Positions 1,255-61,714 of a stretch of 64,000 bases of DNA are shown piece after piece. The stretch is taken from positions 308,404 to 372,403 of the forward strand of contig JAJRPJ010000011.1 of the NCBI GenBank assembly GCA_024280835.1. The letters run 5' to 3'. Numbering within the stretch: position 1 is the stretch's first letter; each line of letters begins with the position of its first letter. The position numbers and the translations under genes are program-made. A model generated the notes under the pieces. It made no database searches. It was not told the DNA's origin and saw only the letters and a list, made by a program, of their open reading frames with translations. The stretch comes from Candidatus Zixiibacteriota bacterium (lineage in GTDB: Bacteria > Zixibacteria > MSB-5A5 > GN15 > JACZUZ01).

Positions 1255-1281
1255 CAAAGGTTCTGTCGGACAAGCCGATAA
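1255..1281 (+). promoter_or_regulatory. sigma28/FliA-like promoter of the histone-like gene
   Basis: CAAA-N15-GCCGATAA versus the consensus TAAA-N15-GCCGATAA, oriented toward 1503. Confidence 0.7.
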
Positions 1282-1502: not shown

Positions 1503-1979
1503 ATGGCTTTTCGTAAAACAACCGCACGTCGTAAACCAGCAGCCAAGCGCAATGCTACACCGCGCGCCACAACCCGTCGCAGCGCCACCAAGCGCGGCGC
1601 CACAGTTCGCGTAAAAGTTTGGTCCGCCAGTGAGATCAGCCAGTTGCGTAAAAAATATCGCAACACAACCAACACCAAAATTGCCAAGTCACTTGGTCGT
1701 ACAGTTGCTTCTGTCCGCGCCAAAGCTGGTTCATTGAGCCTCAAGAAGAACAAAAACTTCTTGTCAATGGTCGCCAAGACTGCTGGTAACGGTGGTATGA
1801 AAACCCGCAAGAGCACAGCTCGCAAGACTGTCGCCCGTAAGGCCAGTTCAATGCGCGGTAAAGCTACCAAGCGCACCGCCGCGAAGCGTAATGCTCCAAA
1901 GCGTAAAACTTCAGCTCGTAAGAGCTCGACACGTCGCGCCACTTCATCCATGAAGCGTAAGGCCACACGTCGTCGCTAG
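1503..1979 (+). CDS. Histone H1/Hc2-like basic protein with a central Myb/SANT-like HTH
   Basis: RBS AAGGAG. 53 of 158 residues are K/R, with one acidic residue. Basic pentapeptide-like tails flank WSASEISQLRKKY…IAKSLGRTVASVRAKA. Followed by its own terminator. Confidence 0.8.
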   Translation: MAFRKTTARRKPAAKRNATPRATTRRSATKRGATVRVKVWSASEISQLRKKYRNTTNTKIAKSLGRTVASVRAKAGSLSLKKNKNFLSMVAKTAGNGGMKTRKSTARKTVARKASSMRGKATKRTAAKRNAPKRKTSARKSSTRRATSSMKRKATRRR

Positions 1980-52414: not shown

Positions 52415-52442
52415 TCAAGAGAGTCCTTACAGCATCCGATAT
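52415..52442 (+). promoter_or_regulatory. sigma28-like promoter of the truncated Hb operon
   Basis: TCAAG-N15-TCCGATAT. Confidence 0.5.
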
Positions 52443-52504
52443 ACTATAGAACAGGTACGAATTGTCAAAATTTAAACATTTCTAATTTATAGAGGAGAGT
52501 CAAC

Positions 52505-52876
52505 ATGGCAAACGAAACATTGTTTGACAAAATCGGTGGTGAAACGGCAGTTAATGCGGCAGTGGATATTTTCTATCGCAGGGTTTTGGGCGATGACACA
52601 TTGGCTGCATATTTTGACGGTGTCGATATGGATGCCCAACATGCCAAGCAGAAGTCATTTTTGACAATGGCTTTTGGTGGACCGAACAACTACACAGGCA
52701 AGGACTTGCGCGAAGCGCACAAGGGAATGGTCGCTCGTGGTATGAACGGGTCGCATTTTGCTTCTGTTGCTGGACATTTGCAAGCTACACTTGAGGAATT
52801 GAATGTCCCTGAGGACTTGATCGGCGAAGTTATGGCTATCGCTGGCTCGACCAAAAAAGATGTCTTGAACGTCTAG
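52505..52876 (+). CDS. glbN: Group I truncated haemoglobin
   Basis: LF..IGG, FY.RV..D, FGGP..YTG..L..AH; strong RBS GAGGAG. Confidence 0.93.
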   Translation: MANETLFDKIGGETAVNAAVDIFYRRVLGDDTLAAYFDGVDMDAQHAKQKSFLTMAFGGPNNYTGKDLREAHKGMVARGMNGSHFASVAGHLQATLEELNVPEDLIGEVMAIAGSTKKDVLNV

Positions 52877-52881
52877 CCCCT

Positions 52882-53934
52882 ATGGGAAGTGACAAAGTCA
52901 TACTTTCCATAGACGGGCAAGAAATTGTCTGTCAAGAATCAGAAACTGTTCTAGATGCGGCTCTGCGCTGTGGCGTGCCAGCTAGGTATTCCTGTCGAAA
53001 TGGGATTTGCCAAAGCTGTATGCTCCGCGCAACCGCGGGACAGCCTTCAGAGATGTCGCAAAAAGGGTTGAAACCCGCTGTTGCATCTCAGGGCTATTTC
53101 TTGGCGTGTCAACATGTACCCACAGAGAGCCTAACTGTCTCGCTTGATGAGGCCAAGGGCACATACTCCTCTGTTTCGATATTGTCGAATGAGGCTCTTA
53201 GTGGCGATGTTTATAAAATTAGCCTGTCTCTCCCAAAGGAGCGTGAGTACAAGACAGGGCAATTTGTCAATCTCCGCAAGGATAGCGGCGAGATACGCTG
53301 CTATTCACTGGCTTGTGTTTCGGAGGCTAGAGCGACTCTCGAATTACATGTCCGACTTATTCGAGGTGGAGCTGTCTCTACTTGGCTTTGCAACACGGCC
53401 AATGTTGGGCAAAAAGTAGAAATTTCTGAGGGGCGCGGTGATTGCGTCTTTGTTCCAGATAGAAGTAAGGCTGACAAGCCAATTTTACTGATGGGCACTG
53501 GCACGGGACTCTCATCATTGTATGGGACAATCAACATTGCTCTTGAAAGTAATCACTCAGGGGAGATATTTCTCTATCATGGAGCATCTAAGAAACATCA
53601 ACTATACCTTGTTGATGAATTACTTGCTCTTGAGGACCGTCACCCAAACTTTCATTATGTACCTTGTGTTTCAGGCGAGGCGGGAAGTTTCGGATTTCGA
53701 GAAGGTCGCTCTCATGATCTTGCACTCAAAGATAACAAAGAGCTGAAAGAGTACTTGGTTTTCACATGCGGTAACCCTGAAATGGTCCGTAGCGCTAAAC
53801 GCAGAGCCTATATGCAAGGTGCTACGCTCCATAATATTTTCGGTGACGCCTTCGTTCGCGCTCATGCTTCTAACTCTGCATCAGAGTCTGGCAAGGTGAA
53901 CATCAGGAATTTAAAGTTCACCACTTCTTCATAA
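52882..53934 (+). CDS. 2Fe-2S ferredoxin-FAD/NAD(P)H oxidoreductase
   Basis: C-x4-C-x2-C…LAC, RCYS, G..S.W, GTGTG, CGNPEMV. Confidence 0.9.
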   Translation: MGSDKVILSIDGQEIVCQESETVLDAALRCGVPARYSCRNGICQSCMLRATAGQPSEMSQKGLKPAVASQGYFLACQHVPTESLTVSLDEAKGTYSSVSILSNEALSGDVYKISLSLPKEREYKTGQFVNLRKDSGEIRCYSLACVSEARATLELHVRLIRGGAVSTWLCNTANVGQKVEISEGRGDCVFVPDRSKADKPILLMGTGTGLSSLYGTINIALESNHSGEIFLYHGASKKHQLYLVDELLALEDRHPNFHYVPCVSGEAGSFGFREGRSHDLALKDNKELKEYLVFTCGNPEMVRSAKRRAYMQGATLHNIFGDAFVRAHASNSASESGKVNIRNLKFTTSS

Positions 53935-54532: not shown

Positions 54533-54568
54533 AAAAAACACCTCGTCGCGACATTGCGACGAGGCGTT
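54533..54568 (-). terminator. Terminator of clpC
   Basis: Minus-strand AACGCCTCGTCGC…GCGACGAGGTGTTTTTT. Confidence 0.85.
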
Positions 54569-54612: not shown

Positions 54613-57108
54613 CTAACTACTCACAGTCTCTGGCTTGTCAGCGGCGCCCGCTTCGTCACCAGTCTCTTCGGTTCCTGAATCACCTTTTGAAAAGTTGAAA
54701 GTCAGGGCCTCTTCGGCGTCATCAACACCAATTATCAGATCCACATCTCCAGCATACTGGCCACGCAGGATCTCTTCAGAGAGCGGATCCTCAAGGTATC
54801 TCTGCAAAGCTCTCTTCAGCGGTCTGGCGCCATAGGCGGGATCGAAACCGACTTTGGCAAGGAATGACTTGGCCTCTTCCGTCAGGTTGAAACTGATGCC
54901 TTTATCGGCGAGACGTTTGGCGATGTCAACCAACAGAATGTCAACAATCTGTTTGATATGTTTCAATTCCAAATTGTGGAAAATGATACTCTCGTCGATA
55001 CGGTTGAGTAGCTCTGGATTGAAGAGCTTCTTCAATTCCTCGGTCACACGTTTCTTGACATTATCATAGGTCTGGTCGGCGTCTTGATTTTCAAAGCCAA
55101 CTGTCTTGTTCTCGCCGATTTGGCGAGTGCCAACATTCGAGGTCATAATGATAACAGTGTTCTTGAAATCAATTTTTCTGCCAAAACTATCGGTGATGTG
55201 TCCATCATCCAGTAGTTGCAAGAGAATATTGAACACTTCTGGATGAGCTTTTTCAATTTCATCGAGAAGCACAACAGAGTATGGCTTACGGCGAACTTTC
55301 TCCGTTAGCTGACCACCCTCTTCATATCCGACATAACCTGGAGGCGCGCCTGTTAGACGACTGACTGCAAATTTTTCCATGTACTCGGACATATCAACAC
55401 GAATCAAAGAATCTGGGTCATCAAAGAGGAACTCAGCTAAAGTGCGAGCTAGCTCGGTTTTGCCGACACCAGTTGGCCCGAGGAAGATGAATGAACCGAT
55501 AGGACGACGTGGATCACCCAAACCTGAGCGAGCGCGACGAATTGCGCGACTGACCGCTTCGATAGCCTCTTCTTGGCCGACGAGACGTTTCTTGAGTTCG
55601 TCTTCCATACGCAACAAGCGTTTGGATTCTTTTTCTTCGAGACGGAACAATGGAATACCAGTGATTTGTGACAGTACAGCGGCGATATCTTCGCTGGTCA
55701 GCACAGTTTTCTTCTCTTCACGCTGCTCTTCCCATTCACGCTGTAACTCAACCAGACGTTCGCGCTCGGCTTTGAGTTCGTCACGCAATTGCGCGGCGGT
55801 TTCAAAGGCCTGATTTTTGACCGCTTGCTCTTTCTTGATTTGAATATCAGCGATGCGGGTTTCGATCTCGGCGAACTCTGCTGGTTTGGTATAGGAAGAC
55901 AAATGCGCCCGCGCTCCAGCTTCATCGATTAGATCAATCGATTTATCTGGCTGGAACCGACTACTGATATAACGAGTCGAAAGTTTGACAGCGGATTCTA
56001 TCGCTTCATCAGAGATAACAATCTTGTGATGATCCTCATATCTAGCGCGCAGACCTTTGAGGATTTGAATTGTATCAACTTCAGATGGTTGCTCAACTGT
56101 GACAGTTTGGAAACGTCTGTCGAGGGCGCCATCTTTTTCGATGAACTTGCGATACTCATTGAGAGTTGTCGCGCCAATACACTGTAACTCACCGCGTGAC
56201 AATGCTGGTTTGAAGATATTGGAAGCATCGAGTGAGCCTTCTGCGCCACCTGCTCCAACAATTGTGTGCAACTCATCAATGAAAATGATAACGTCCTTGG
56301 AATTGACAATCTCATTCATCACAGATTTGAGGCGTTCCTCAAATTGTCCACGATACTTTGTGCCCGCCACCAGTGAGGCCATATCGAGTGTGACAACTCT
56401 CTTGCCTTCAAGTGTCTGCGGAACTTTGCCTTCGACAATACGCTGTGCCAAACCTTCGGCGATAGCGGTTTTGCCTACACCGGGCTCACCGATGAGCACA
56501 GGGTTGTTCTTTTTGCGACGAGAAAGAATTTGCGAGACACGCTCAATCTCGGTTTCTCTACCGATGATAGGATCGAGACGCCCGCGACGCGCATACTCTG
56601 TTAGGTCACGTCCGAAATGATCAAGCGCTGGTGTCTTTGATTTTTTGCGTTTCTTCTTGAATGATGAAGGCTTACCGTTTTGAATATTCTTCAGCTCTTC
56701 ATAGGCTTCTTTGTAATCAATCTCAAACATCGAGAGCACTTGCGCGGCGATACCTTCTTCATCTTTGAGAAGCGCCAAGAGAATGTGCTCTGTGTCAATG
56801 TCTTTGGATTTCAACGCGCGAGCTTCTTGCCCAGAAACTTCGAGCGTTTTCTTAGCGCGCGCTGTCAGTGGCAATTGACCAATTGTCATTGTTCCACCTG
56901 ATGGCTGGACGACATCTTCAATGGAAGTCTTTAGGTCCATCATATCTAAGCCCAGGTTGGCTAAGAGTTCAGCAGACCGTCCTTCACCCAGGCGTATGAG
57001 CCCGAGAAGAAGATGTTCTGTCCCGATGTAGTCGTGACGCAAACGAGCAGCTTCATCACGAGCATACTCGATTGATTTTCGCGCCATTTCTGTGAACATC
57101 TCATTCAT
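54613..57108 (-). CDS. clpC: ATP-dependent Clp protease ATPase ClpC
   Basis: Clp N repeats, [11 protein letters not shown]-like M domain, [11 protein letters not shown] loop; start MNEM. Confidence 0.96.
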
Positions 57109-57193
57109 GTCTTTATTTCCTTCCAATCTTTCTAACACAAAAATAGCGCTTGTAGTTCATTCTTAGCAACAGAATTATTTTGCGCTAGGTTGT

Positions 57194-57220
57194 CTATCGT
57201 CGTCTTGTCCGTCTTCTTTG
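57194..57220 (-). promoter_or_regulatory. sigma28-like internal promoter of clpC
   Basis: CAAA-N15-GACGATAG. Confidence 0.6.
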
Positions 57221-57343
57221 CTATATTTCTGTCACTACTCTACAACTGCTTTGTTCTTGTTAGTCTTGAACTTATGCGTTAAACGCGCGTAGTTGTTACA
57301 CGCAAACAAAGTTTGCGTGACTTACTCGTTTTCTATCAACAAA

Positions 57344-58420
57344 CTAAGGATCACTGCGTCTATCACTTATACGTAACCGCTCGCGAACCATTTGTGCTCG
57401 CACTGCATCACGTTTGGATTGATCCATTTCTTCGCCATAATACATTTGTAAATGCGCTGGTTGCGAGAGCAAAAGTATTTCATTGATTTGATCCAAATCA
57501 ATGAATGAGACTCTACCGAGAGCCACGCCAAAGCGTACCGCCGAAAGCATATTCATAACTTCTTCTGAGGTTAGTGAGCGCGCGTACTTGAGAATACCAT
57601 AAGCGCGCCAAACTTTATCGTCGATTTGGTTTTCAGCTTCCTCGACCAATCGATTACGCGCATCACCTTCTTCGGTGATAATTGATTCGGTAATCGTCAC
57701 AATACTTTTGAGGATTTCATTTTCGGAGGCGCCCAATGTTGTTTGATTGGAAATCTGAAATAGATTCCCGAGCACATCAGAGCCTTCACCATAGAACCCT
57801 CTGACCACCAAACCCATTTTTGAGATTCTAGCGATGACATTGTCTATCTCACCAGTGAGAACCAGCCCAGGCAAATGGATAAGCACCGAAGCGCGCATGC
57901 CTGTGCCGACATTGGTTGGGCATGCGGTCAGAAATCCAAAATCCGGATCATAGTCTATTTCAAGTGAACTACATAAATCACTGTCTAGTTCATTGGCGCG
58001 TTCGTAGGCGCGGTAGAGATGCAGCCCAGGGTACATTGACTGCATGCGCAAATGATCTTCTTCGTTAATCATGATTGAGGTGCGTTCATCTTCATCAATA
58101 TATAGCGCGCGATTCGGTTCATCATCGAGGAATGTCGGAGAGATCAAATGTCTCTCGACAAGGAAGTCCCGTGTCAATGAACTGAGTTCATTGGACTCAA
58201 TAAATCCTTCATTAACTAATGAGCTTGAACGATCAATCGCAGTTTTGACATAGCTTACAACTTTCTGCATGGTCTCGCTGTCGGCGGAATTTGGATAGCG
58301 CAAACCACTAATATTACGCGCCAAACGCACGCGCGAAGAAAGCACCACCGATGTCTGCTGCCCAGGGGCTGTTAGCCATGAAGCTGGGCGACGAGCCATT
58401 TTATCAAAATCTGGTGTCAT
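57344..58420 (-). CDS. mcsB: Protein arginine kinase
   Basis: SSRVRLARN, NEEDHLR, CPTNVGTGMRAS, FQISNQ.TLG. Confidence 0.95.
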   Translation of the reverse strand: MTPDFDKMARRPASWLTAPGQQTSVVLSSRVRLARNISGLRYPNSADSETMQKVVSYVKTAIDRSSSLVNEGFIESNELSSLTRDFLVERHLISPTFLDDEPNRALYIDEDERTSIMINEEDHLRMQSMYPGLHLYRAYERANELDSDLCSSLEIDYDPDFGFLTACPTNVGTGMRASVLIHLPGLVLTGEIDNVIARISKMGLVVRGFYGEGSDVLGNLFQISNQTTLGASENEILKSIVTITESIITEEGDARNRLVEEAENQIDDKVWRAYGILKYARSLTSEEVMNMLSAVRFGVALGRVSFIDLDQINEILLLSQPAHLQMYYGEEMDQSKRDAVRAQMVRERLRISDRRSDP

Positions 58421-59010
58421 TACTTATTGACCTCATTTTCTTCGTGCTCTGCCTTCTCGGATGAATCTTCTGAACGCTTTTCGTTTTCAAGGGCCTCTTT
58501 GACTTGCGCGCGAATCTCTCTGAGTCGATCACGTAAATCCGCAGCGCGTTCAAACTCTTCGCTCTCGATTGCGCGCTGATATTCTGACTCGAGACGCTCT
58601 TGCTCCTGAACACTTATGACACCGTTGTCTTCAGAGTTTGGTAGTTTGCCGCGATGAATACTGTTGCCATGTATTTTGCGGAGAATAACCTCAAGCCTTG
58701 GACGGAAGACTTCATAGCAGGCGCCACAACCAAAGCGCCCTTGTTGGGAAAACTCGGCAAATGTCATTCCACATTGCTGACAAGACGAATTTTCAGAATC
58801 ATCATCAAGTGGCGCTAGTGATTGATCGACTATACTGCCGAGAATTTTTGCAAGCGGAAAAGGATTTTGGTCCAAAGGATTATGAAAACCCATCGCTGAA
58901 GCGCACTCTCTACAGAGTGTCAAGACAGTCTTTTGACTGCCGCGAACTTGAGTAATCTTCAGTGAACCGTCAGCGTCTTTACCGCAGTTATGGCATTTAA
59001 TTTTGTCCAT
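58420..59010 (-). CDS. mcsA: McsB activator McsA
   Basis: Four CxxC motifs, HG…H.GK, C-terminal UVR (E.FERAA.LRD). Confidence 0.93.
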   Translation of the reverse strand: MDKIKCHNCGKDADGSLKITQVRGSQKTVLTLCRECASAMGFHNPLDQNPFPLAKILGSIVDQSLAPLDDDSENSSCQQCGMTFAEFSQQGRFGCGACYEVFRPRLEVILRKIHGNSIHRGKLPNSEDNGVISVQEQERLESEYQRAIESEEFERAADLRDRLREIRAQVKEALENEKRSEDSSEKAEHEENEVNK

Positions 59011-59122
59011 GGCGCTCTTCCAAACAGTTTGTCTAACTATCCATGTAGCTCAGAGGTTAATAAGTCGTAATTGCTATTGTAGTCTGCAATAGTTTCTATC
59101 CAGCCACCTCATATATGTTTAA

Positions 59123-59149
59123 CTATCGGCAGTTCTAGCTGAACCTATT
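59123..59149 (-). promoter_or_regulatory. sigma28-like promoter of mcsA-mcsB-clpC
   Basis: AATA-GGTT…(N15)-GCCGATAG. Confidence 0.6.
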
Positions 59150-59326
59150 CATCCTATAATGCTTACTAGTAAAGTTTCTCACAGAATCTAGTCCCTTTGT
59201 GTTTCAAAACTGTACACTTGCAGAAATCACTTAGAGCCATTTTCACTGATTTTTCACAGAGAAACGGGCTAAGCAGATTCAACGGCTTGGCATGTTCTGA
59301 ACCAACTTCCCACGCTGGACTTTCCG

Positions 59327-60028
59327 CTAGGATGGATTCATGACCAAGGCGCCCTCTATAAACTTGTACACCGCAGAGCAGCGTTTGGCTAACTCTGGAT
59401 TGTGTGTGGCGATAACAAATGCGCTGCCTTCGCGCTTGTTTATCTCAACAAGTAAATCGTGCAAACGTTCAGCGGTGGCGAGGTCTAGGTTGCCAGTAGG
59501 TTCGTCGGCAAGGAGCAATTTGGGACGATTGGCCAAAGCTCGGGCAACCGCCACTCTTTGTTGTTCTCCGCCCGAAAGCGCAGAAGGCAAATGACTTGCG
59601 CGATCTGAAAGTCCAACTGCTTCTAGTAATTCCTCTGCCCGTTCCTTGGCTTGGGCGCGTGTGGCGCCTGAGGCTAATTGGGGTAGCATGATATTTTCAA
59701 TCGCATTGAAATCTTCGAGCAAATGGTGAAACTGAAAAACAAAGCCAACATTCTGATTGCGAAACTTTGAACGAGCGTCCTCACTTAGCGCTACGATATT
59801 AGTTCCTGCGCATTGAATTGTCCCAGATGTGGGTACATCTAGTCCACCTAGTAAATGAAGCAAGGTCGACTTGCCGACTCCGGATTCTCCGACGATGGCC
59901 ACCATCTCTGAGCCTTTGACTTGCAATGATAGATCACGCAGAACTTCCAAGGTACCTGTGGCGGTTGAGAAACTTTTTGTGAGTTTCTGGACTTCCAAGA
60001 GAGGTGTCTTTGTCACTGTATTAGTCAT
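59327..60028 (-). CDS. lolD: Lipoprotein-releasing ABC ATPase
   Basis: GESGVGKST, GFVFQFHHLL, LSGGEQQR, ADEPTGNLD. Confidence 0.93.
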   Translation of the reverse strand: MTNTVTKTPLLEVQKLTKSFSTATGTLEVLRDLSLQVKGSEMVAIVGESGVGKSTLLHLLGGLDVPTSGTIQCAGTNIVALSEDARSKFRNQNVGFVFQFHHLLEDFNAIENIMLPQLASGATRAQAKERAEELLEAVGLSDRASHLPSALSGGEQQRVAVARALANRPKLLLADEPTGNLDLATAERLHDLLVEINKREGSAFVIATHNPELAKRCSAVYKFIEGALVMNPS

Positions 60029-60053: not shown

Positions 60054-61340
60054 TTAGCGTCTGAGAGCTTCAATTACAGGTTGTCTGGCGGCGGTGTAGG
60101 CAGGATAAAGTCCCGCCAGAAAAGTCATGACCAAAGTGCCAGCGCCAATGTACATGAAGTCCGCCAAACGTGGATCAAATGGTAGATACGATATGAAGTA
60201 GACATCAGCTGGTAGCGCGATAATACCAAAAGTGTTTTGTACCCAAACCAAGACCAGCGCCAAAGCCCAGCCACTGAGAGTTCCGACCACACCAACTGTC
60301 AGTCCATTGTAAACAAAGACTTTCCTAATTGAAGAGCTAGTCAGGCCGATTGTCTTGAGAGCCGCAATCTCTGAGCGTTTTTCCAAAGCAATCATAATTA
60401 GAGTTGAAACCACCGAAAAAGCCACGATGATAATCATCAAACCAAACACTAAATAGATCAATCGTTTTTCCAGCTCCACCCAAGTAAACAGATTTGCATA
60501 CAATTCATTCCAAGGCACAACATCATAGCGCGAGTCCAGTTTTTCTTGGACAAGTGGAGCCATCGCTTCGGCGTCGAAGATATTGCGCACCTTGAGATGC
60601 ACGCCCGTGACGACACCGCCAAGGTTGAATAATTCTTGTGCGTCGGGAATCGAAATATAGGCTAGTTGGGCGTCGTATTCGATGAAACCAGTTTTAAAAA
60701 TACCAGTGACACGGAAGAATCCTTTTTTGGGCACTGATGTCGGTGACAGAGTACGGTCGCTAATTGAATAGAGAATAATTGGGTCGCCGATTCCTGCGCC
60801 GAGACGATTAGCCAAGTCTGTTCCGAGCATGATTCCTGCTATTTGTTTCTTAGATGTGGGCTGCTTGGCTTTCCCTGAATCGTTTTCAGTGTCATCGGAT
60901 GGATCGGATGAAACTGTGAATGAATACTCGCCGCGTTGGATACTTTCGGAAAGCGCTCCAGTGGTGGCTTCCAAATCGAGGTCAATTCCGCGGACTACTA
61001 TGCCATCACCTGTTGAGCGACTTTGGATGCCTGTTTTGTAATAAATAAATGGCGCGGCGCCAAGAACATCGGGCATCGATAACGCAGTAGCCATGACACT
61101 GTCGGATTCGTGCATTAGGTTGTCTTCGGTACCGACTGCGAAGATTGTGATATGCGAAGTTCCCCCAAGAATGCGAGTGCGGATTTCGCGCTCGAAACCA
61201 TTATGCGCCGCTAGAAACAAACATACCGCGCCAACACCGATGCCCACGCCAATAGTGGTTATCATCGATGACATCGAGGTGAAATATTTGCCAGAACGCA
61301 AATAGCGTTTGGCGATGAATAACTCAAGATTGTATGACAT
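60054..61340 (-). CDS. Lipoprotein-releasing ABC permease LolC/E
   Basis: FIAKRYL, MacB/FtsX topology, EIA.LK.IG, YPA..AAR..VIEALR. Confidence 0.9.
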   Translation of the reverse strand: MSYNLELFIAKRYLRSGKYFTSMSSMITTIGVGIGVGAVCLFLAAHNGFEREIRTRILGGTSHITIFAVGTEDNLMHESDSVMATALSMPDVLGAAPFIYYKTGIQSRSTGDGIVVRGIDLDLEATTGALSESIQRGEYSFTVSSDPSDDTENDSGKAKQPTSKKQIAGIMLGTDLANRLGAGIGDPIILYSISDRTLSPTSVPKKGFFRVTGIFKTGFIEYDAQLAYISIPDAQELFNLGGVVTGVHLKVRNIFDAEAMAPLVQEKLDSRYDVVPWNELYANLFTWVELEKRLIYLVFGLMIIIVAFSVVSTLIMIALEKRSEIAALKTIGLTSSSIRKVFVYNGLTVGVVGTLSGWALALVLVWVQNTFGIIALPADVYFISYLPFDPRLADFMYIGAGTLVMTFLAGLYPAYTAARQPVIEALRR

Positions 61341-61498: not shown

Positions 61499-61699
61499 GT
61501 AGGGGCACAGCGTGCTGTGCCTTTTGCCCAACAAGGTCAGCGCTCAAAGTTCAAACAACTCCCACCAATCATAGGGGCGGGGTCTCCCAGCCCTTGCCAT
61601 GATTCTGTAACCCACAAAGAAAAAGGCGCCGAAACGGCGCCCTTACGGATTGGGATATTTCCATTGAATCAAATAGGGCACAGCACGCTGTGCCCCTAC
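61499..61699. repeat. REP cluster (GTAG-type, REPIN-like)
   Basis: GTAGGGGCACAGCGTGCTGTGCC (61499) and its inverted copy (61675-61699) enclose two related hairpins (61571-61593, 61625-61646). Confidence 0.8.
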
Positions 61700-61714
61700 T
61701 ATGATGAATAGTTC

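Follow-up and report, generated by a model that had tools for sequence, protein, structure and literature searches.

The mcsA-mcsB-clpC locus

We analyzed a 64-kb window (64,000 nucleotides, part of contig C13) from the genome of a Candidatus Zixiibacteriota bacterium (3.3 Mb, completeness 96%), focusing on the mcsA-mcsB-clpC operon on its minus strand. Window translation and comparison with Pfam and NCBIfam showed that all three genes are intact reading frames. The activator gene mcsA (58420-59010, minus strand) encodes 196 residues with a UVR domain and four CxxC motifs, and its stop overlaps the start of mcsB at position 58420. The protein arginine kinase gene mcsB (57344-58420, minus strand) encodes 358 residues that match NCBIfam NF002194 above its cut-off as well as PF00217. 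The third gene, clpC (54613-57108, minus strand), encodes an Hsp100 unfoldase of 831 residues with a Clp_N domain, two AAA domains, and a UVR middle domain (Pfam). Comparison with relatives placed the conserved clpC start at ATG 57108 (MNEMFTE), not at GTG 57138. A terminator-like hairpin with a 13-bp stem and a T tail (54537-54568, minus strand) lies 3' of clpC and closes the operon.

McsA matched NF053706 with an E value of 2e-36, which is below that model's Bacillus-specific cut-off. McsB aligned with PDB entry 6fh1 over 343 residues (E 2e-92), and its NEEDH and CPTN motifs, whose residues we take to be catalytic, are intact and align with those of 6fh1. The best PDB match of ClpC was B. 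subtilis ClpC (E 3e-283), and the glutamate motifs of its phosphoarginine (pArg) pockets, GTEH and DTEH, are present. A ClpP-like gene was recognized by motif elsewhere in the genome. In ClpC, E32 and E106 are key pArg determinants, and T7 and R9 lie at or near pocket 1 (PMC12583610). Equivalents of E32, E106, and T7 were found in all 53 distinct sequences parsed from loci of relatives; the R9 equivalent is Met in the host family and Arg in 9 of the 53. By sequence, the locus is a standard McsA-McsB-ClpC arginine-tagging proteolysis unit with predicted kinase and ClpCP activity. Across the phylum, the Arg9 equivalent was seen as L, S, R, A, M, N, K, G, or Q between invariant neighboring residues; in Staphylococcus aureus, Arg9 is a resting-state anchor (PMC12583610).

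Absence of ctsR and conserved gene order

The initial annotation had described the operon as lacking ctsR and CtsR heptad operators, and both descriptions were borne out. Profile searches with PF05848 found no ctsR match at E ≤ 0.1 in the host genome and none in the 151 Zixibacteria genomes of our phylum sample (0/151), with B. subtilis and L. lactis controls positive. McsB was present in 151 of these 151 genomes and FliA in 149. Using what we take to be the CtsR heptad consensus, we found no exact heptad in the spacers before mcsA and clpC. A single loose tandem match lies at 59247 (3 mismatches in 14); of four relatives compared, two also have loose matches, at positions that do not align with it.

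The further claim that the operon had been rewired from CtsR control did not hold. Directly upstream of mcsA lie lolD (59327-60028, minus strand) and a lolC/E-like permease gene, here lolE (60054-61340, minus strand), both belonging to the ancestral transcription unit. Our gene-order survey covered 80 loci, and the genome-wide search for ctsR covered the Zixibacteria only. The order lysS-lolE-lolD-mcsA-mcsB-clpC, whole or in large part, was found in loci labeled Zixibacteria, Eisenbacteria, WOR-3, Latescibacterota, Gemmatimonadota, Lentisphaera/Victivallis, and Verrucomicrobia. At the level of the locus, the gene preceding mcsA in the non-Zixibacterial cases is lolD, not ctsR. Because this order recurs in several other phyla, there is no sign of recent rewiring from CtsR, and we rejected that scenario: a layout without ctsR and linked to lolD is common to the phylum and its neighboring phyla.

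A FliA-type box in the lolD-mcsA spacer

We surveyed the lolD-mcsA spacer in 71 loci taken as Zixibacterial by handle or similarity, of which 59 distinct loci were parsed. The gap is at most 98 bp in 54 of the 59 and at most 24 bp in 43. The five longest gaps (199-316 bp) belong to the five genomes of the host family, namely the three genus members (the host, G000, and its sisters G035 and G135) and G151 and G152, which represent the other two genera of the family.

The host spacer contains a 12-bp conserved block (59123-59134, minus strand) that holds the FliA-type -10 box GCCGATAG (59130-59123), 120 nt before the mcsA start. This block is identical in all three genus members, with the rest of the spacer mostly diverged, and its distance to mcsA is typical. 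With mcsA and clpC excluded from training, the site had a matrix score of 13.0; of 1239 antisense control regions, 2 scored as high. At the -35 position we found a weak GAATAG (59145-59150, minus strand), which reads AGCGAG in both sisters, the common letters being the final AG only. The sigma28-like promoter proposed before mcsA was therefore upheld in part: its -10 box is conserved in three of three genus members, and a conserved -35 is missing. A second conserved box, TGAAACAC (59199-59206, minus strand), lies about 70 bp upstream of the -10 in all three genus members and is possibly an activator site; genome-wide, it showed neither strand bias nor a partner motif.

No terminator-like site was found at the gene borders from lolD to the region upstream of clpC, so that a start before mcsA could cover mcsA, mcsB, and clpC. 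A gene or RNA remnant in the spacers before mcsA and clpC was rejected, as neither contains an open reading frame of at least 60 residues on the coding strand or an Rfam match at E ≤ 0.1.

FliA and its candidate regulon

The genome encodes one FliA, which scores above two curated cut-offs and lies at the end of a flagellar export cluster, flhB-flhA-flhF-fleN. We called 2671 genes on the host genome and analyzed the regions 35-220 nt upstream. With 51 occurrences where 10.2 were expected, GCCGATA was the most over-represented upstream 7-mer and outranked the RpoD -35; in non-divergent upstream regions it occurred 35 times in sense and 8 times in antisense orientation. The -35 learned together with it was CT(A/C)AAG at 15-16 bp. 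A footprint control on 279 orthologous upstream regions of G035 found GCCGATA kept at 10 of 15 sense sites and at none of three antisense sites, compared with 5.9% for any 7-mer; a number of the kept sites likewise have no clear -35. A spacing test on the whole genome without gene calls gave no signal; the signal is confined to upstream regions. This strand-specific enrichment lies upstream of dozens of genes, which include a gene for a basic helix-turn-helix (HTH) protein in the window and others that, from their sequences, we take to be fliD, motA, cheW, pilM, pilT paralogues, and rpoN.

Control of this kind does not appear to extend through the phylum. Before lolE, CCGATA was found in 2 of 30 sense regions and 4 antisense regions, which is no peak, and scattered matches within the lolD 3' end of about nine loci did not align; we rejected phylum-wide FliA control of the operon. 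A large FliA regulon in other families was likewise not supported, since 400-kb samples showed little enrichment of the motif in the flagellin-less genome G037 (6 vs 3.8) and modest enrichment in G034, from another family (16 vs 8.9).

Some features of FliA itself deserve mention. The protein (contig C12; stretch L067:17816-19039) carries a Lys/Thr/Ala/Arg-rich N-terminal extension of about 150-170 residues that resembles a histone H1 tail, and its open frames span 359-433 residues in the genus compared with mostly 250-320 elsewhere. FliA was also present in 24 of the 26 phylum genomes that gave no flagellin match, suggesting targets other than flagellar genes. The FlgM model had no match in the genome; this model is short, and absence of FlgM is not implied.

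The region before clpC

The initial annotation had placed a second sigma28-like promoter before clpC (57194-57220, minus strand), consisting of CAAA (57220-57217), a 15-nt spacer, and GACGATAG (57201-57194). This site did not withstand comparison. Its -10 has a core mismatch, and the site is absent from the aligned sequences of G035 and G135. The 7-mer GACGATA shows no enrichment in upstream regions (13 observed, 9.4 expected) and was conserved in G035 in none of four testable cases. The matrix score of the site was 8.7, which 30 of 1239 antisense control regions reached, and the sisters scored 2.3 and -1.2. Lacking conservation, enrichment, and a distinctive score, it was set aside as a chance match. 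A hairpin at 57299-57319 is also not conserved in the sister genomes.

Just upstream of clpC there is a genus-conserved block (57120-57169, minus strand) that can be read as RpoD-type: TTGCTA (57169-57164), 18 bp, and TATTTT (57145-57140). About 42 of its 50 positions are identical with G035, and 65 of 250 control regions hold an equally good window. A sigma70 scanner called no promoter in this block. Because the conservation is unexceptional and the scanner was silent, we regard the block only tentatively as an RpoD-type promoter.

A Thr-to-Ile difference in the YwlE-type phosphatase

The genome encodes an orthologue of the arginine phosphatase YwlE, a low-molecular-weight (LMW) phosphatase, at C10:63672-64187 (stretch L141:1441-1956), downstream of tsaC. 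Its best PDB match was YwlE (4pic), and an orthologue was found in 40 of 41 genomes searched. Position 5 of the P-loop is Ile in all three genus members (G000, G035, and G135) and Thr in all 25 genomes read from outside the genus (G151, G152, and 23 others). The genome's second LMW-family protein has a different loop type, which we take to be arsenate-reductase-like. In YwlE, the Thr confers pArg specificity, and exchange of Thr for Ile lowers pArg activity and raises phosphotyrosine (pTyr) activity (PMC8001253, PMC7772506).

The genus-wide Ile at the YwlE specificity residue, as read from the translated genes, is a new observation. It speaks more for tagging as a one-way route to degradation than for a reversible switch, and it weakens the latter: a cycle of condensation and decondensation needs an eraser, and the eraser of this genus has the pTyr-type Ile.

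Interpretation of the mcsA box

We judge the box before mcsA to be quite probably a working FliA promoter. The broader explanation that we prefer, with moderate confidence, is that of a ctsR-less unit whose expression would be raised in the motile state through this box, with McsB tagging many proteins for ClpCP. Basal expression of the operon would come from read-through from lolE-lolD, perhaps with a contribution from the RpoD-type promoter before clpC, and FliA at the mcsA box would add a second start covering mcsA, mcsB, and clpC. Given the weak -35, the mcsA promoter would be weak or activator-dependent. In the motile cell, operon expression would rise, McsB would tag many proteins, and ClpCP would destroy them. 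If the Ile-type phosphatase is indeed shifted to phosphotyrosine, the arginine tag would be mostly one-way, and such a system would remodel the proteome, not toggle one protein. The locus is likely a known system with a regulatory variation specific to this lineage, the gain of a FliA promoter.

Several points weigh against this explanation. Across the five genomes of the family, the -35 of the mcsA promoter scores 0.1, -4.4, -4.4, -0.7, and 0.2 bits, and nearly all of the site score derives from the -10. Sense counts in the matrix scan include training sites, and the independent count is the antisense one only. The spacer of G152 carries ACCGATAC at a similar distance (score 10.7) and that of G151 just AACGATAG (score 2.6), so the box is not uniform across the family. 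The footprint control was limited to 683 kb of a single sister genome, G035, and to 15 sense sites. The gain of the spacer, the exact box, and the phosphatase change are one evolutionary event each, which places their coincidence beyond statistical testing. Finally, S. aureus PtpA prefers pTyr and retains substantial pArg activity (bioRxiv 10.64898/2026.01.13.697720), so the tag may still be reversible.

We consider unlikely the alternative that the mcsA box is inactive as a FliA promoter, being another factor's site or a neutral remnant, and that the operon is served by read-through and the RpoD-type promoter only. The unconserved -35, the lack of a good box in G151, and the unobstructed path for read-through agree with it, as does the finding that perfect conservation between G000 and G035 extends to 2.4% of all 12-mers in orthologous upstream regions. 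It fits less well with a box that matches the top upstream 7-mer exactly, on the right strand and at a typical distance (120 nt), that has been kept in three genomes amid diverged flanks, and whose score is equaled in so few antisense regions.

The basic HTH protein as a proposed partner

At the other end of the window, outside the operon, a gene at 1503-1979 (plus strand) encodes a basic-tailed HTH protein of 158 residues, with 27 Arg, 26 Lys, and 1 acidic residue. It had been described as H1-like, and its predicted structure points elsewhere. In the model, about 55 residues form a helical core of high confidence, with tails at pLDDT of about 50. The core gave weak matches to Myb, GcrA, and HTH profiles and superimposed on the DNA-binding domain of Caulobacter GcrA with an rmsd of 1.1 Å over 45 residues, at an E value that is not significant. 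Searches of Pfam and NCBIfam, including H1-like and Hc1/Hc2 models, returned no match. The core is GcrA/Myb-like, not a linker-histone fold; the composition and the predicted disordered basic tails are compatible with DNA condensation.

The gene is preceded by a full FliA-type promoter (1255-1281, plus strand; CAAAG..., 15 bp, GCCGATAA) that is conserved in three of three genus members and scores within the top 9 of 1791 regions, being itself a training site. Of 30 homologous genes, 14 are preceded by the same bipartite motif; they belong to three families, f1 (3 genes), f5 (10), and f3 (1). Because both mcsA and the basic-protein gene have conserved FliA-type boxes, their shared regulation, as the initial annotation had it, is likely.

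This protein is central to a reading in which the operon serves as a dedicated nucleoid switch: FliA would co-induce the basic protein and McsAB-ClpC, McsB would phosphorylate the protein and release it from DNA, ClpCP would degrade the protein, and the chromosome would decondense as the motile cell settles. We find this improbable. In its favor are the boxes on both genes, the disordered Arg/Lys tails, and the invariant arginines within the HTH core. Unfolded proteins are the preferred substrates of McsB, which also keeps CtsR and HrcA from binding DNA (PMC8957991). The chlamydial hctB gene belongs to sigma28, and mcsA and mcsB drop upon knockdown of late sigma factors in Chlamydia (PMC10597470). 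The basic-protein gene also lies about 14-72 kb from mcsB in more than 12 genomes of the order; in many others it is distant or on a separate contig. A background check in one genome revealed little further synteny beyond the core block, and since the background was checked in that genome only, the linkage is a weak hint.

Phylogenetic co-occurrence gave no support for a dedicated pair, because McsB is universal and the families with strong basic-protein matches all have flagellin. The core profile gave strong matches in 103 of the 151 genomes, weak matches only in 8, and none in 40, all of which have McsB. All 10 of the f5 homologues have a FliA promoter, yet the long mcsA spacer was seen in f1 only. 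No compared genome has the basic-protein gene and mcsB in one operon, and dozens of other genes are candidate FliA targets as well. The protein's GcrA-like core leaves condensation as a possible property at most, simultaneous synthesis of kinase and substrate would require an additional gate, and the eraser has a pTyr-type residue. Within our preferred explanation, of a kinase that tags many proteins, the basic HTH protein may be one McsB substrate among many; nothing singles it out.

A variant of the switch would apply to the genus as a whole: FliA would program a motile cell, comparable to the attack cell of Bdellovibrio or the elementary body of Chlamydia, with its chromosome packed by Arg-rich HTH proteins and with McsAB-ClpC already loaded through the recently acquired FliA promoter. 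The arginine phosphatase having turned into the tyrosine type, pArg would be an irreversible trigger that strips off and destroys the packing protein on regrowth. We regard this, too, as a long shot.

Two other very basic proteins were noted. One, encoded at C7:3515-4066, is a Lys-rich paralogue that shares the HTH core. The other, a protein with KKVAK repeats, is encoded at C19:85782-86447, with no FliA box seen upstream on the sense strand, and its C-terminus is one that we take to be SWIB-like.

It is very improbable that the operon is a conventional heat-shock unit in which HrcA or an ECF sigma factor has replaced CtsR: HrcA is encoded in the genome, and the block before clpC can be read as ECF-like (TGAAC-N17/18-GTT), with the TGAAACAC box upstream of the mcsA promoter as a further candidate, but CIRCE-like elements occur before groES and hrcA and in neither operon spacer, and strand counts are even for the ECF-like pattern (24 sense, 25 antisense) and for TGAAACA (92 and 101). 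We rejected HrcA/CIRCE and ECF-type control on these element searches and strand counts.

Comparison with known systems

In B. subtilis, the ctsR-mcsA-mcsB-clpC operon (class III heat shock) has the same three genes in the same order. The kinase motifs and the ClpC pArg-pocket glutamates are kept here, and ClpP and a YwlE orthologue are likewise encoded elsewhere. In contrast to B. subtilis, the Zixibacterial operon has neither ctsR nor its operators, is linked to lysS-lolE-lolD, and carries a FliA-type box before mcsA; the Arg9 equivalent of ClpC is Met, and the phosphatase has Ile for Thr11 in the genus.

The initial annotation had also drawn a parallel with Chlamydia, which is borne out (PMC10597470). 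Chlamydia trachomatis has McsAB-ClpC in a Gram-negative cell and a sigma28-controlled basic DNA-binding protein, HctB, and its mcsA and mcsB depend on late alternative sigma factors (PMC10597470). Degradation triggered by pArg has been proposed for differentiation in Chlamydia (PMC10128030, PMC10597470, PMC11708050), and the concept is thus already published. The two systems differ in that chlamydial mcsAB lies apart from clpC and that knockdown of sigma28 alone lowers just hctB and tsp in the published account. In the Zixibacterial genome the three genes lie side by side, flagellar and pilus genes are among the members of a large candidate FliA regulon, and the basic protein is built on an HTH core.

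In Bdellovibrio bacteriovorus, FliA is a broad regulator of the motile cell type, with an attack-phase consensus, TTAAG-N16-CCGATA, found at 92 of 140 mapped promoters (PMC3627812). This consensus is close to the motif learned here; that regulon was mapped experimentally, whereas ours is derived from sequence alone. The accessible text of that paper does not mention mcsAB-clpC.

A full-text literature search, with most subscription papers and supplements outside its scope, found nothing on McsB or FliA regulation in Zixibacteria. It also found no report of McsB acting on a histone-like protein, the proteomics supplements with lists of pArg substrates lying outside its scope. According to a recent preprint, the general view is that Gram-negative bacteria are without arginine-phosphorylation machinery (10.64898/2026.01.13.697720), and arginine phosphorylation is often viewed as a Gram-positive heat-shock device. 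Here, the kinase, activator, unfoldase, and phosphatase recur in a Gram-negative phylum without CtsR, and one lineage appears to have brought the unit under control of its motility sigma factor, with a change in the eraser as well. If this is true, the lineage would offer a non-pathogenic parallel to the open question of McsB targets in chlamydial differentiation, and a natural Thr-to-Ile phosphatase variant accessible to work with purified protein. Should the box before mcsA prove inactive, the locus would be an ordinary one.

Other features

Between a DMT-like gene and lolE, positions 61500-61700 of the window contain GC-rich palindromes, some of them repeated and two terminator-like. On contig C7, a gene that we take to be rpoN-like (C7:113377-114726) has a FliA-type -10 box that is kept in G035, which makes a FliA-to-sigma54 cascade possible; the gene that follows it (C7:112648-113007) resembles, as far as we can judge from its sequence, a ribosome-hibernation factor gene. 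Within the window, in the stretch 52435-53934, a truncated-globin gene (52505-52876) and a ferredoxin-reductase gene (52882-53934) lie downstream of a well-scoring FliA-type promoter.

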